From positions 319,361 through 383,360 of the forward strand of contig CAZVXT010000001.1 in assembly GCA_964631145.1 (NCBI GenBank): DNA of 64,000 bases. Direction: 5' to 3'. Below, one piece after another: positions 41,435-61,345 of the stretch. Below the pieces are notes generated by a model. That model was not told the origin of the DNA. It saw only the letters and a list, made by a program, of their open reading frames with translations, and made no database searches. Both the position numbers and the translations under genes were made by a program. Numbering within the stretch: the stretch's first letter is position 1; each line of letters opens with the position of its first letter. The stretch is from an uncultured Candidatus Saccharibacteria bacterium. GTDB lineage: Bacteria; Patescibacteriota; Doudnabacteria; UBA920.

Positions 41435-41867
41435 ATTTTTGTTTTTGCCAAAACTATTTGCCTTGGCTATTCTCCTTCATTTTTTATATATTATTTAGAT
41501 CCGCCATGGCGGTTTGGCAAAATTTCTCCTGCCAGCAAAAACGCTAATTTGCTGTTAGCAGCTTCACAGGCAGGGGAATATAGCTAATAAAGAATAAAGT
41601 CAAAATATGAATTTAGTTAACTTTTGATTTGTAAAAGAACTTATTAAGCTAAATTAGGTTCAAATATATAACTTAAGCATAATCATAGCTTAACAAAATA
41701 GTATATCATAATTTGATAATTTTGTCAATACTTGCAATTATATGAGTATTTGTTATTATTAATTCAAATTCATTAGAAGCCCCGCGCAAGCGAAGAATTA
41801 CCGACATTTGCTCGAATATATGGGAATTACACCTTAAGGCTTCAAGGTAGTACCTTATATCGAAACT

Positions 41868-41900
41868 AAAGACCTGACTCTTTAGTCAGTTTTATTTTTT
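41868..41900 (+). terminator. intrinsic terminator inside the long region upstream of rpsL
   Basis: Stem CTGACT-TTT-AGTCAG followed by TTTTATTTTTT. Confidence 0.5.
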
Positions 41901-41981: not shown

Positions 41982-42401
41982 GTGCCAACAATTAATCAAT
42001 TAGTGCGAAAGCCTAGAAAGCCGTTGATTGCTAAAAGCAAATCACCAGCCATGCTTCGCAGGGTCAATTTGATCAAAAATAAAGCCCTCAACATCCCAGG
42101 TTCTCCATTTGTTCGTGGTGTATGTTTGAAGGTTTATACAACTACTCCAAAAAAGCCAAACTCGGCTTTACGTAAAGTAGCTAAAGTAAAGTTAACCAAT
42201 GGTATGGAAGTATTAGCTTATATTCCAGGTATTGGTCACAACTTGCAAGAACACAGTGTGGTACTTATCCGTGGTGGACGTGTAAAAGATTTGCCAGGTG
42301 TACGTTATCACATAGTTAGAGGTAAACTAGATACCTTGGGCGTTGCGGATCGAAAGCGCTCTAGAAGTAAGTATGGCGCAAAACGCCCTAGTCAAGCGTA
42401 A
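41982..42401 (+). CDS. rpsL: 30S ribosomal protein S12 (GTG start)
   Basis: [11 protein letters not shown]... with [10 protein letters not shown] and the rest of the S12 signature. The GTG at 41982 follows GAAAGG. Confidence 0.95.
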
Positions 42402-42586
42402 TTTAATTTTTTGAAAATTTCTTTGTCAGAATCTCCGCTACTCATTCGTCGTACCTTTTCAGTACGACTCATTCGCTGCTCGATTCTTTCGCGAACTTTT
42501 CTAAAAAATTTAATTACCTTAGATACGAATATTTTTCCAATCTAGTTTTTAAATAAAACTATTTTGAATTCAGAAAGGAAACTCTC
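42402..42586 (+). repeat. structured spacer element (copy D) related to the S10-operon hairpin repeats
   Basis: It shares the TTTTTGA...CTTTGT left tail and the ...GGAAACTC right tail with those copies. The core hairpin is AGAATC...GTCGTAC-CTTTTCA-GTACGAC...GATTCT with an internal ACTCATTCG direct repeat. It fills an unusually long S12-S7 spacer. Confidence 0.5.
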
Positions 42587-43090: not shown

Positions 43091-43121
43091 ATTTGAACTT
43101 TTAAAATTTGGGAAAATAAAT

Positions 43122-43151
43122 AGAGTTACTAAGTTTTTTCTTAGTAACTCT
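43122..43151 (-). terminator. terminator hairpin for the antisense small-gene pair
   Basis: Perfect 12-bp stem AGAGTTACTAAG/CTTAGTAACTCT with a U6 loop. A U-rich tract follows on the minus strand. Confidence 0.5.
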
Positions 43152-43158
43152 CGTATGG

Positions 43159-43368
43159 TTAAGGTTTAATTAGTCCTATGGAAACTATTACAACCTTGAG
43201 TTTATTATTTTTACTTTTTATCTTGAAATCGTTAATAACTTTTTCAGATACCGCATTTATTTTTTCTGTTGTATCCAGATAATCAGTGGTTTCCATAATA
43301 ACTCCTTGCAAATCAAACTGCATTTTAAAAAAAGAATAAGCCAAGACTGTAAATAAGTAGATTTTCAT
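43159..43368 (-). CDS. hypothetical small protein with a hydrophobic N-terminus
   Basis: 69 aa. GGAGGG lies upstream. It overlaps the upstream gene by ATGA. Confidence 0.5.
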   Translation of the reverse strand: MKIYLFTVLAYSFFKMQFDLQGVIMETTDYLDTTEKINAVSEKVINDFKIKSKNNKLKVVIVSIGLIKP

Positions 43369-43607
43369 TTTTTCCCTCCAGTATTTTTCTTAAACTCTGT
43401 ATAGCCCCAAGCAATTAATCCTAATAATATAGCTAGCCCTAATCCTCTTTTGGAAAAGATAAAACTATAAAACCAAGCATCAATTGCATCGCCAACCGTA
43501 TGGGTGGACGTTGTTTCCATTATTTGTTGTAGCCCGCTGTAAAGCAGAACATAAAACACTAGAACCATAAGAAGTCCTACAAACAGATTGAATATAAAAT
43601 TATTCAT
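43365..43607 (-). CDS. hypothetical two-TM small membrane protein
   Basis: 80 aa. GGAGGAAA lies upstream. It is antisense within the rpsG-fusA spacer. Confidence 0.55.
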   Translation of the reverse strand: MNNFIFNLFVGLLMVLVFYVLLYSGLQQIMETTSTHTVGDAIDAWFYSFIFSKRGLGLAILLGLIAWGYTEFKKNTGGKK

Positions 43608-43679
43608 AAATTTCCTCCAAGTTTTAAATTTATCATATTATATCATAAAAAATTAAAAAGTCAAGTATAATTAAATTAT

Positions 43680-56405: not shown

Positions 56406-56512
56406 TAGATTTAGTAGATATGTTCTGAGAGCTTCTAGCCTAAATAGCTACAGCATTCAGATAACTATTTACCATCATGTTTAAGCCCATCTTTTTGGTG
56501 TACTTTTATATG

Positions 56513-56540
56513 CTGGGAAATAGTCCCAGTTTTTTATTTT
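56513..56540 (+). terminator. terminator-like hairpin between rpsJ and rplC (possible attenuator)
   Basis: Stem CTGGGA-AATAG-TCCCAG followed by T6, inside a 198-nt spacer. Confidence 0.4.
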
Positions 56541-56603
56541 TATATCAGTAATTAAAGTTCTGAAGTTTGAATTTTTCCCAAACCTCTCAGTTCCAGATAA
56601 TAT

Positions 56604-57272
56604 ATGAAATTTATTGCAGGAAAAAAACTAAATATGACTCAGTTCTTTGCGGACAATGGTCAAGTTATTCCAGTAACTGTAATCAAAGCTCCTCCTGTAG
56701 TAGTTACTCAGGTAAAAACTACAGAAACTAAAGATGGTTACAATGCTGTACAAATCGGCGTTAGCAGTCAAGTTAAAGGAAGTAAAAAGTCTAACAAGTC
56801 AAAGACTGGTCATAGCAAAAACTTAGGACAATTTGGATCTTTTCAAGAATTTCGTGTAGAAAATCCTGGAGATTATCAAGTCGGTCAAAAGTTGGACGTT
56901 TCAATATTTGAAGTAGGCGACATGGTCTCTGTGGTAGGTACTATGAAAGGACGTGGTTTTGCCGGAGCGATTAAGAGACATGGTTTTGCTGGTTTTCCAG
57001 CTAGTCATGGACACGATCGTCCTCGTAGCGTTGGTTCTATTGGACAAAGATATCCTCAACACACTCGTAAAGGTTTAAGAATGTCTGGTCATATGGGAAC
57101 AAACTTAGTAACTGTAAAAAACTTACAAATTGTGGATGTGGATAGCTCTAAAGGATTAATTATGGTTAAAGGTGCTGTTCCTGGAACTAATGGCGGTATG
57201 GTAAGAATTTTATCAAACGGCGTTAACAAGCCTTTATTTGTAGAAGTTGTAGAAGCTAAGAAGAAGAAATAA
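56604..57272 (+). CDS. rplC: 50S ribosomal protein L3
   Basis: MKFIAGKKLNMTQFF aligns to the L3 N-terminus. Confidence 0.95.
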   Translation: MKFIAGKKLNMTQFFADNGQVIPVTVIKAPPVVVTQVKTTETKDGYNAVQIGVSSQVKGSKKSNKSKTGHSKNLGQFGSFQEFRVENPGDYQVGQKLDVSIFEVGDMVSVVGTMKGRGFAGAIKRHGFAGFPASHGHDRPRSVGSIGQRYPQHTRKGLRMSGHMGTNLVTVKNLQIVDVDSSKGLIMVKGAVPGTNGGMVRILSNGVNKPLFVEVVEAKKKK

Positions 57273-57282
57273 GGAGATTTAA

Positions 57283-57395
57283 TTTTTGACGAATCACTTC
57301 GTTGTTTTCTGAAAAAATTTGGAAGCGTAATAACTGTTACGTTGACAAATTTTTTCAGAAAACACCTTGTGCTTCATTCAAAAATGAAACTCCTA
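57283..57395 (+). repeat. extended-hairpin intergenic repeat, copy A (rplC-rplD spacer)
   Basis: The 17-bp outer stem TTTTCTGAAAAAATTTG/CAAATTTTTTCAGAAAA (57305-57321 and 57346-57362) encloses the inner hairpin CGTAA-TAACTG-TTACG. It shares conserved flanking tails with copies B, C and D. Confidence 0.7.
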
Positions 57396-57447
57396 GGATA
57401 AAAAACAGTTTTGATAACCTACTAAATTGAATTTATTTTTTATATAA

Positions 57448-58093: not shown

Positions 58094-58495
58094 ATGGCAA
58101 TATTTTCTAAAAAACAGAATAATGAAGACGAGGTAGAGAATACAGATGCAGTTGCAGAAAATTCTACCGAAGCTCAAAATCCAGTTATGATTGATGTTGC
58201 AGCAAATGGATTGGGAAATAAAGGATTAGTTTTACCAAGATTGTCCGAAAAAGCTGGATTCCTTGGTAAAGTAAACCAATATGTATTTACTATCCACGGT
58301 AACTTAAATAAGATTGAGGTTCGTAGTGCAATCGAAAAGATGTATGGAGTAAAAATTGCAAATATTAATATGATTAATGTTGCAGGAAAAACTCGTCGTT
58401 ACGGAGCTACTAAAGGTAAGAAATCCGACTATAAAAAAGCAGTTGTTACCTTGACAGCTAATAGTAAAAAGATTGATCTAGTAGAACCTAGCTAG
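58094..58495 (+). CDS. rplW: 50S ribosomal protein L23 with a 35-aa acidic N-terminal extension
   Basis: The L23 core is LVLPRLSEKA...KTRRYGATKGKKSDYKKAVVTL. An internal ATG (MIDVA) would give a canonical length. Confidence 0.9.
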   Translation: MAIFSKKQNNEDEVENTDAVAENSTEAQNPVMIDVAANGLGNKGLVLPRLSEKAGFLGKVNQYVFTIHGNLNKIEVRSAIEKMYGVKIANINMINVAGKTRRYGATKGKKSDYKKAVVTLTANSKKIDLVEPS

Positions 58496-58505
58496 GAAAA
58501 TTCCA

Positions 58506-58600
58506 TTTTTGATTATCTACTTTGTTCTTTTCTGAAAAAATTTGTCGACGTAACAGCTATTACGCTTCCAAATTTTTTCAGAAAACCCCTAGTATATAAT
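58506..58600 (+). repeat. extended-hairpin intergenic repeat, copy B (rplW-rplB spacer)
   Basis: It has the same 17-bp outer stem as copy A (about 58528-58544 and 58569-58585). The apex TCGA-CGTAA-CAGCTA-TTACG-CTTC is the reverse complement of A's apex. Confidence 0.7.
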
Positions 58601-58659
58601 TCAAAAATAAAATTTTCTTAAAGGTTGAATTTTTAAATAACTTTATCTCACTAAATTAA

Positions 58660-59821: not shown

Positions 59822-59844
59822 TTTAATCAATTCAATTATAGTTA

Positions 59845-59900
59845 GTAGAAAGTAAAGTAGAGAACGGAAAATCTTTCTATATTCTACTTTACCTTCTACT
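59845..59900 (+). repeat. 17-bp inverted repeat in the rpsS-rplV spacer
   Basis: GTAGAAAGTAAAGTAGA pairs with TCTACTTTACCTTCTAC (1 mismatch) around a 22-nt loop. Confidence 0.55.
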
Positions 59901-59916
59901 TACTAAATGTAAATTT

Positions 59917-60493: not shown

Positions 60494-61126
60494 ATGGGTC
60501 ATAAGATAAATCCAACATCATTAAGACTAAAAGTGACTGACACTTGGAAATCCAAATGGTTTTCCAAAGCAAACTATGCTGAGCAGTTAAAAGAAGATAT
60601 CAAGATTCGTTCTTATTTAGAACTTCATCTTCGCAAAGCAGGTTTAAGTCGCATTGACATCGAACGTCTAAACGACGGTGTGGTAACTATAGTAATTCAT
60701 ACCAGCAAGCCTGGTGTGATTAATAGAGGTACTGGTGTCGAAGAGCTTAAGAAGAGACTAAAAGATAAAGTCGGGATTCGCAAAGAAATTCGCGTAAGAG
60801 TTGAAGCTGTTGTAAACATGAATTTGTCAGCTCAAGTTATCGCTAATAATATTGCGGAACAAATCGAAAAGCGCGCTGCTTTTAGACGCTTAATGAAGCA
60901 AACATTAGAACAAGTTATGCAATCTGGCGCTAAAGGTGTAAAGGTTGCTATCGGTGGACGTTTGAATGGTGCAGAAATTGCTCGTACAGAACACTTGTCT
61001 GCTGGTAAAATTCCTCTTCATACCATTCGTGCAGATATCGACTTTGCTCGTTCTACTGCTCATACCACTTATGGAACTATTGGTATAAAAGTGTGGATTT
61101 ATCGCGGCGACATCTTTAAGAAATAA
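60494..61126 (+). CDS. rpsC: 30S ribosomal protein S3
   Basis: MGHKINPTSLRL with the KH domain and S3 C-terminal domain. Confidence 0.95.
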   Translation: MGHKINPTSLRLKVTDTWKSKWFSKANYAEQLKEDIKIRSYLELHLRKAGLSRIDIERLNDGVVTIVIHTSKPGVINRGTGVEELKKRLKDKVGIRKEIRVRVEAVVNMNLSAQVIANNIAEQIEKRAAFRRLMKQTLEQVMQSGAKGVKVAIGGRLNGAEIARTEHLSAGKIPLHTIRADIDFARSTAHTTYGTIGIKVWIYRGDIFKK

Positions 61127-61140
61127 GTACTCTAATTTTG

Positions 61141-61245
61141 AAGAATTGCTTTGTTATTTTTTCAAAAGAATTGTCGTCGTAAAAAGTATTACGCCTCCAA
61201 TTCTTTTGAAAAAAATGCCTCGCACTTCATTCAAAATTAAAGCAC
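61141..61245 (+). repeat. extended-hairpin intergenic repeat, copy C (rpsC-rplP spacer)
   Basis: The 17-bp outer stem TTTTTTCAAAAGAATTG/CAATTCTTTTGAAAAAA (61157-61173 and 61198-61214) carries compensatory changes relative to A and B. The inner CGTAA-AAAGTA-TTACG and the shared tail CACTTCATTCAAAA are present. Confidence 0.7.
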
Positions 61246-61345
61246 TCAATAATAGTCAGTTATATTATTTTTAACAAAGTTTTCCAACTGTATAAAAATA
61301 AATCATTCAAGACATATCGTTTTTTTATAGACAAAATTTTAAATT

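Follow-up and report, generated by a model that had tools for sequence, protein, structure and literature searches.

What fills the unusually long gaps between ribosomal-protein genes in the genome of an uncultured Candidatus Saccharibacteria bacterium (GTDB lineage Patescibacteriota; Doudnabacteria; UBA920)? The window that we analyzed, a 64,000-nucleotide (64-kb) stretch of contig CAZVXT010000001.1 (assembly GCA_964631145.1, positions 319,361 to 383,360), is AT-rich (~33% GC) and contains the str (rpsL-rpsG-fusA) and S10/spc ribosomal-protein clusters. The rplC/rplD, rplW/rplB and rpsC/rplP spacers are 175 nt, 164 nt and 219 nt long. An initial annotation, made from the letters alone, had described homologous hairpin elements in these three spacers and, more distantly, in the rpsL/rpsG spacer, and had proposed a lineage-specific regulatory, processing or mobile element acting on the S10 and str operons. 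Our analysis indicates that the four inserts, here called copies A to D, are probably (we put this at roughly 75%) copies of a non-autonomous transposable element of the miniature inverted-repeat (MITE) type and not a dedicated ribosomal regulator.

Copies A, B and C were built exactly as first described. Each has a perfect 17-bp outer stem, with no mismatches and no wobbles in the arms, a 4/4 internal loop, a CGTAA/TTACG inner stem and a 6-nt loop. The outer stem of copy C differs from that of A and B at four positions, and all four changes are compensated on the opposite arm, as had been claimed. The tails flanking the stem, which had been seen as separate features, are indeed present, but RNA folding of the four copies showed that they pair together, so that each element is one continuous imperfect hairpin of ~120 nt with its base at the upstream stop codon. 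The fold of copy A had a predicted energy of -49.3 kcal/mol and a z-score of -8.8 relative to dinucleotide shuffles; the corresponding z-scores were -7.3 for B, -7.4 for C and -3.4 for D. No inverted repeats in the window are longer than these four elements and one unrelated hairpin between rpsS and rplV. As read from their sequences, the elements contain no open reading frame (ORF); units of the family are 115-190 bp long, those in the window ~120 nt. Tail motifs are more degenerate in copy B than in any other window copy, and copy D has consensus-like motifs (AAUUUCUUUGU ... CGCGAACUU), a GUCGUAC/GUACGAC apex and pyrimidine-rich internal loops.

Table. Hairpin elements in the window and their matches to covariance model R1 (positions are those of the window).
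Feature	Position	Strand	Description
Copy A	57273-57396	+	rplC/rplD spacer; ~124-nt hairpin directly 3' of the rplC stop codon TAA (57270-57272)
Copy A, outer arms	57305-57321 and 57346-57362	+	
Copy A, apex	57322-57345	+	inverted relative to copies B and C and the family consensus
Copy B	58496-58617	+	rplW/rplB spacer; begins directly 3' of the rplW stop codon TAG (58493-58495)
Copy C	61127-61247	+	rpsC/rplP spacer; between AATAA direct repeats
Copy D	~42400-42517	+	rpsL/rpsG spacer; nearest to the family consensus
R1 match, copy A	57264-57402	+	46.7 bits, E = 9e-10
R1 match, copy B	58487-58625	+	36.3 bits, E = 7e-7
R1 match, copy C	61116-61255	+	79.2 bits, E = 7e-19
R1 match, copy D	42388-42526	+	85.6 bits, E = 1e-20

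We built a covariance model (R1) from 62 non-redundant copies of the element in other genomes, with the window and its close relatives excluded. The structure was drawn by hand and checked by pair counts and later by realignment with the covariance model; 76.6% of the cells in the 62-copy alignment were paired, compared to 54% in shuffles and at most 46% in slid controls. Searched with filters off, the 64-kb window gave exactly four matches to R1, copies A to D, all on the plus strand and with scores of 36-86 bits. The best of them was copy D (85.6 bits), which had been taken for the more distant member. R1 found no fifth copy in the window; the next-best match (17.6 bits, E ~0.1) was a generic terminator-like hairpin. 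The hairpin in the rpsS/rplV (S19/L22) spacer (59839-59910, ~30 bp) was considered as a fifth member and rejected, with an R1 score of 12.7 bits and no similar copy in any fetched locus.

Across 92 sources, R1 confirmed 108 copies and rejected chance pattern matches. Twenty-five R1 matches without the exact search pattern retained the family motifs. In the 108-copy alignment, 81% of cells were paired (55% in shuffles, at most 47% in slid controls). By pair counts, 38 of the 40 pairs changed on both sides, with 1196 double-change cells compared to 449 expected, and covariation is strong across the family. RNAalifold predicted no structure on a plain MAFFT alignment because the stems were out of register there. 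Rfam searches with the window, its relatives and canonical copies, at both gathering and E-value thresholds, returned only generic microRNA-precursor-like chance matches, and no ribosomal-protein leader model matched the family.

The family is not lineage-specific, as had been supposed, but spans several phyla. A pattern of the two tail motifs matched at least 120 stretches in a collection of genome contigs, nearly all of which fold into a common architecture. From the base upward, this consists of a variable basal stem; GAA-U-UUC [UUU] GU opposite GC [CUC] GAA-C-UUC; a variable stem with pyrimidine-rich loops; and an apex of UCA-CCGUAC-N5-GUACGG-CUC. The hosts include many classes of Patescibacteria, Thermodesulfobacteriota, several Bacillaceae, Desulfobacterales and other groups, and two metagenome-assembled genomes (MAGs) of Thermodesulfobacteriota together hold at least 28 near-identical copies. 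A strict core pattern (AAAA..TTG....CGTAA......TTACG....CAA..TTTT) had no match in the same collection, because the source genome is not part of it and the outer stem is too variable. Our literature search found no paper that linked MITEs with the candidate phyla radiation (Patescibacteria) or contained the motif strings. The family appears to be uncatalogued, with no Rfam model, and is unusually widespread and unusually well conserved in structure; palindromic MITEs that occupy transcribed intergenic DNA are themselves a well-known kind of element.

Some copies depart from the usual arrangement. In two Gracilibacteria loci (L036, 3-251; L125, 684-962), copies stand in tandem pairs 125-142 nt apart. 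Short variants (L040, 400-524; L114, 4528-4645; L029, 5204-5328; L075, 5243-5368) are without the GAAUUUC/GAACUUC module on both arms and keep the GUUG...GCCU box and the UCA-CGUAC...GUACG-CUC apex. A good copy (65 bits) lies at 9843-9981 of L129, a contig classed as viral (IMGVR_UViG_2832792268_000001), which points to a possible route of spread between hosts.

The ends of the elements and their flanks carry the signs of transposition. In the Thermodesulfobacteriota genomes (MAG36/76), the unit is 151 bp long with terminal inverted repeats (TIRs) of ~26 bp (termini GACGGCTTCGTAAAAAGTCC and GACTTTTTACGAGACCATC in the MAG36_tar_biofilm assembly, JAXHTY01). Perfect 6-bp target-site duplications (TSDs) were present at fixed boundaries in 21 of 30 copies there; among mismatched controls, 6% reached at least 5/6 matches. 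Two Patescibacteria genomes with several similar copies (termini TAGGACTTACG...CGTAAGTCCTA and CAGGACTTACG...CGTAAGTCATG) had perfect 5-bp TSDs in at least 7 of 12 unique copies. The ends pair in every lineage, in copies A to D from the first base 3' of the stop codon. Of the window copies, C lies between perfect 5-bp AATAA repeats at 61122-61126, where the repeat takes in the stop codon of rpsC, and at 61248-61252. Copy D has inverted termini (GTAATT...AATTAC) that overlap with the stop codon of rpsL (42399-42401). The 16S-23S spacer of Peribacillus tepidiphilus (locus L126) occurs in two versions (828-1040 and 1300-1400) that represent a filled and an empty site. Their sole difference is the element, which sits directly 5' of GTTCTTTGAAAAC and is antisense to the rRNA; this locus contains one N and a repeated 16S end, so that part of the arrangement may be an artefact of assembly. 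BLAST searches of canonical copies against PLSDB plasmids gave no match. Short size, absence of an ORF, TIRs, TSDs of fixed length, dispersed copies and filled and empty sites are the signatures of a MITE.

Comparison with close relatives showed turnover of the occupied spacers. L4 homologs placed the window in Patescibacteria, close to Candidatus Doudnabacteria. We examined S10 operons of relatives with 80-85% L4 identity and folded every spacer. At the sites of the window copies, these relatives have short spacers (L3/L4, 34-46 nt; S12/S7, 25 nt), and their homologous hairpins are located in other spacers: S10/L3, L5/S14, L6/L18 and downstream of EF-G. The stem sequences are completely different; what is shared is a left motif, AATTTCTTTGT(C/T), a right motif, (G/T)CCTCGAACTTG, and a CGTA(A/C)...(G/T)TACG apex. 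Together with the TSDs, the TIRs and the filled and empty sites, this turnover upholds the view of the initial annotation that the elements are homologous, structurally constrained insertions and mobile in the manner of MITE or REP sequences.

In ~30 loci, the left motif, which is part of the hairpin base, lies 16-24 nt beyond the end of an upstream gene on the same strand. The upstream genes are diverse (ndk, ppdK, rnc, greA, nrdR, rpsL, rplW and others). In co-directional contexts in Patescibacteria, 29 copies were sense and 5 antisense, and the distance was mostly ≤10 nt to the stop codon and 20-450 nt to the next start codon. Orientation correlated with GC skew as strongly as with gene direction, and the two factors are confounded in these data. 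A terminator scan gave predictions before S10 and in the S10/L3 spacer and none at A, B or C, and these three hairpins have no 3' U tract and thus do not resemble intrinsic terminators. There was no excess of predicted promoters at the elements.

The element is not specific to ribosomal-protein operons. Among the 77 loci that came from the pattern search and had confirmed copies, six contain genes of the str, S10 or spc clusters. Copies in five of these lie in or flank S12/S7, S7/EF-G, L23/L2 and S10/L3 or precede S14, and the copy in the sixth (L093) is just downstream of an EF-Tu match. We considered whether the element is a general feature of ribosomal-protein operons in Patescibacteria and rejected this, since a further 80 Patescibacteria S10 operons (~635 kb) contained only one match. 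Four copies in Bacillaceae run opposite to transcription: one in an rRNA spacer, one beside rplT and, in each of two species, one between tRNA-Asp and tRNA-Phe; the remaining Bacillaceae copies are of mixed orientation. The single match in 80 operons, the unrelated upstream genes and the antisense rRNA and tRNA copies speak against the earlier proposal that the element serves the S10 and str operons in particular. The two tRNA-Asp/tRNA-Phe copies (L017, 5202-5339; L043, 1569-1706) occupy the same site in the same orientation within large tRNA clusters of two Bacillaceae genera.

Copy A records an event that took place at the DNA level. Its core is 57/59 identical to that of copy B in reverse complement and 82% identical in direct orientation (short-word BLAST), while the tails of the two copies are co-linear in direct orientation. 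The 24 nt between the arms of A must therefore have been inverted: the apical segment of A is the reverse complement of 58545-58568 in B and lies between two perfect 17-bp arms. In the R1 search of the window, the core of copy A also gave a local match on the minus strand (57304-57364, 22.9 bits), which confirms the inversion; B and C matched in the consensus orientation. Such an inversion is a DNA-level event, through either recombination or template switching between the arms.

Covariation had been taken to imply selection on structure. At the level of the family (108 copies), this argument holds; an RNA structure and a DNA palindrome are not separated by it. With one conserved U-G pair left out, the stems contained 178 G-U/U-G cells and 167 A-C/C-A cells, without the G-U excess expected of a selected RNA, and the flipped apex of copy A points the same way. 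In 107 of the 108 copies, it is the complementary strand that has the more stable fold.

A MITE would account for the window as follows. A transposase acting in trans presumably mobilizes the element, making 5-6-bp staggered cuts at AT-rich targets. The copies that survive in a compact genome would be those inserted exactly at the stop codon of the upstream gene, or duplicating it; both neighboring genes stay intact because the insertion duplicates the stop codon. Purifying selection in compact genomes would spare the upstream ORF and the downstream initiation region, and surviving copies would mostly be oriented with the pyrimidine-rich-loop strand in the mRNA. Complementarity along the whole length may be kept because the ends of the element co-evolve or because mobility needs a fold-back, and we infer that a function specific to ribosomal proteins is unnecessary to explain it. 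The window copies are most likely co-transcribed with the str and S10 operons, forming long intercistronic RNA hairpins. By analogy with ERIC and Correia/NEMIS elements, these hairpins may be tolerated passengers, possibly with secondary effects as 3' barriers or as substrates of double-strand RNases, and may alter the stability of individual mRNA segments. They may or may not have the regulatory or processing role once proposed for them.

Several observations weigh against this interpretation. The possible TSD of copy A is imperfect (AATAA at 57268-57272 and GATAA at 57397-57401, 4/5 identical), and the flanks of copies B and D contain no recognizable TSD. We saw no autonomous partner or transposase: there were no pairs of terminal motifs 0.5-3 kb apart in the fetched 8-kb loci. 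All four window copies lie in ribosomal-protein spacers, which make up ~18 of the ~75 spacers (p ~0.003, a rough estimate). The orientation bias may stem from a preference at the level of RNA or of replication, and either the sense bias or the clustering of the window copies in these spacers could mean a selected function. The asymmetric internal loops are conserved (UUU opposite CUC, UCA opposite CUC), and a U-G pair is present in 70 of the 108 copies. Pairing and loops are thus conserved beyond the need of a transposase that binds double-stranded DNA, which suggests a strand-specific single-stranded structure. Pyrimidine-pyrimidine mismatches outnumber purine-purine mismatches by ~2.6:1, which also weighs against a purely double-stranded DNA explanation.

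From these points one can frame the hairpin as a strand-specific single-stranded module, of RNA or DNA, conserved across phyla, whose invariant pyrimidine-rich internal loops and CGUAC/GUACG apex are read by a conserved factor. We regard this as rather doubtful, a judgment that covers the general idea and both of its versions together. According to one version, the module would be a portable stem like that of pre-rRNA with a boxA-like UUCUUUG, rendering insertions into operons non-polar and processable; according to the other, it would be the substrate of a fold-back-dependent transposition that still gives 5-6-bp duplications. If true, a module of this kind would account for the covariation along the whole length, the asymmetry of the arms and the recurrent landing in operons of the translation apparatus (ribosomal-protein spacers, tRNA clusters and rRNA spacers).

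The strongest alternative is that the element, whatever its origin, has been domesticated as a useful intercistronic RNA, an RNase III site or 3'-end barrier that sets the stability of segments of polycistronic mRNA. The 29:5 sense bias in co-directional Patescibacteria contexts, the closeness of the hairpin base to the stop codon (no more than 10 nt in most such cases) and the restriction of the four window copies to str and S10 spacers are in its favor, as is the presence of other, unrelated long hairpins in the ribosomal-protein spacers of related genomes and in the S19/L22 spacer of the window. There are also precedents in the intercistronic RNase III sites of phage T7 and in REP, ERIC and NEMIS elements (for ERIC and NEMIS, PMC2229807). 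We nevertheless consider it unlikely, with one match in 80 other Patescibacteria S10 operons, different spacers occupied in close relatives, stems without an excess of G-U over A-C mismatches, and Bacillaceae rRNA and tRNA operon copies in the opposite orientation; moreover, copy A has been retained although the inversion of its apex complements its loop sequences. A more particular proposal, that the hairpins are autoregulatory RNAs mimicking an rRNA binding site for feedback control of the downstream genes, would fit the location of the copies in ribosomal-protein spacers, among them rpsL/rpsG, which in E. coli holds the S7 operator. This proposal is already contradicted by the distribution of the family, and we give it next to no credence: elsewhere the element follows ndk, ppdK, rnc, greA, nrdR and other genes, the MAGs of Thermodesulfobacteriota hold at least 28 near-identical copies with TSDs, no Rfam ribosomal leader matched, and a single motif stands ahead of four different downstream genes.

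In rRNA operons, the processing stem carries boxA in its 5' strand. The family has a similar layout, with a 5' arm pairing to a distal 3' arm, and its conserved left motif AAUUUCUUUGU contains the 7-mer UUCUUUG, which is also found in GTTCTTTGAAAAC of the P. tepidiphilus rRNA spacer, presumably the native boxA with a Firmicutes-type core. The element might thus be a mobile antitermination module that, like rRNA leaders, loads NusB and NusE (S10) while single-stranded and averts the Rho-dependent polarity of a long untranslated insert. This would explain the tolerance of sense copies inside operons and agrees with the sense bias. The resemblance to rRNA operons is limited to the 7-mer, a post hoc match that is weak evidence and may serve as a lead. 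The motif is partly paired in the folded element, copies A and B have been retained with degraded versions of it (CACUUCGUU and UACUUUGUU), and many family copies, including those at Bacillaceae rRNA, tRNA and rplT genes, are antisense to transcription; we judge such a module quite improbable. Hardly any better placed, and if anything slightly worse, is the idea that the element acts as folded single-stranded DNA on one replication strand, recognized by a REP/RAYT or IS200/IS605-type HUH enzyme or something similar. The orientation bias would then stem from replication and not from transcription, and GC skew does correlate with orientation as well as gene direction does; conserved strand-specific mismatched loops, stems without a G-U preference and the DNA-level flip in copy A are also consistent with it. 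Known HUH and Y1 systems, however, do not make regular 5-6-bp TSDs, no conserved target tetranucleotide flanks the elements, which are 3-5 times the length of a REP, and no RAYT or TnpA gene was seen, with no systematic search made for them.

Among known systems, the closest in form to the MITE-type element proposed here are the ERIC/IRU sequences of enterobacteria, 127-bp imperfect palindromes that resemble it in size, in being palindromic over nearly their whole length, in having TSDs and no ORF, and in occurring as dispersed intergenic copies inside transcription units, co-transcribed as a long RNA hairpin. ERIC sequences have orientation-dependent effects on mRNA (PMC2229807). They are confined to enterobacteria and relatives, have 7-bp TIRs and TA termini and show no evident sequence relationship to the present family, which extends over several phyla and has 5-6-bp TSDs and conserved motifs in its internal loops (GAAUUUCUUUGU / GCCUCGAACUUC) and apex (UCA-CGUAC...GUACG-CUC). 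Correia/NEMIS elements of Neisseria are likewise MITEs with TIRs and TSDs that insert next to genes and are co-transcribed, and hairpins formed by their TIRs in transcripts are RNase III substrates (PMC2229807). They differ in their 24-26-bp TIRs, non-palindromic interior, TA duplication, IHF site and restriction to one genus; they are the best model for a possible effect of the window copies on mRNA. REP/BIME sequences are also palindromic, intergenic and often intercistronic, and REPs are thought to stabilize upstream mRNA. REPs, however, are 20-40 nt long, bear a GTAG or CGTC tag, do not duplicate the target site and are associated with a RAYT gene, none of which applies to elements of 115-190 nt with TSDs and no conserved GTAG or CGTC tag at their ends. 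PATEs derived from IS200/IS605, which insert 3' of a fixed tetra- or pentanucleotide with no duplication and have a separate subterminal hairpin at each end, do not fit either, as the left flanks of our elements vary and recur on the right and each element is a single whole-length hairpin. The intercistronic RNase III signals of phage T7 are homologous irregular hairpins with internal loops placed right after stop codons in highly expressed operons; unlike the present elements they are not mobile and are much shorter.

Other features of these operons were noted along the way. A second, unrelated family of hairpin repeats (TGTCATYCTGAGC...GCTCAGGATGACA), absent from the window, fills many S10/spc spacers in the relatives L003-L006, with up to 13 motif matches per locus (for example, L005, 12183-12281 and 18915-18987). 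The S10/L3 spacer contains a conserved attenuator-like leader (window 56420-56545, rpsJ/rplC; L002, 1194-1345; L003, 8911-9062; L005, 8903-9052), in which a 5' hairpin is followed by GATAACTATT(T/C)(A/G)CC, able to pair with the 5' half of a terminator consisting of GCTGGGAAATAGTCCCAG or ATGTGGTGAATAGCCACAT and then TTTTTTATTT. The alternative pairing shows compensatory changes, TTTACC/GGGAAA in some genomes and TTCGCC/GGTGAA in others. This leader had no Rfam match, and its sequence suggests that it possibly controls the L3-L4 block by transcription attenuation. The rpsG/fusA spacer (43091-43679) is 589 nt long and interrupts the str operon; it has a terminator-like hairpin just after rpsG (~43112-43150) and two apparent small minus-strand ORFs (~43175-43620), and relative L005 also has a small minus-strand ORF there. 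Upstream of rpsL, 41480-41900 contains GC-rich self-complementary segments, such as tccgccatggcgg and ctcctgcc...ggcagggg, amid AT-rich intergenic DNA, with no Rfam match at the gathering threshold.

Insertion of mobile DNA explains the 160-220-nt gaps between ribosomal-protein genes that are normally contiguous, in this reduced genome. It would mean that the very small genomes of Patescibacteria harbor active or recently active MITEs even inside their most conserved operons. A model of the family can be used in annotation to guard against false calls of regulatory RNAs, and the family is a candidate for learning how long hairpins in polycistronic mRNAs are tolerated or exploited. Should the conserved loops prove to be a binding site, the element would gain wider interest as a portable module of RNA or DNA.

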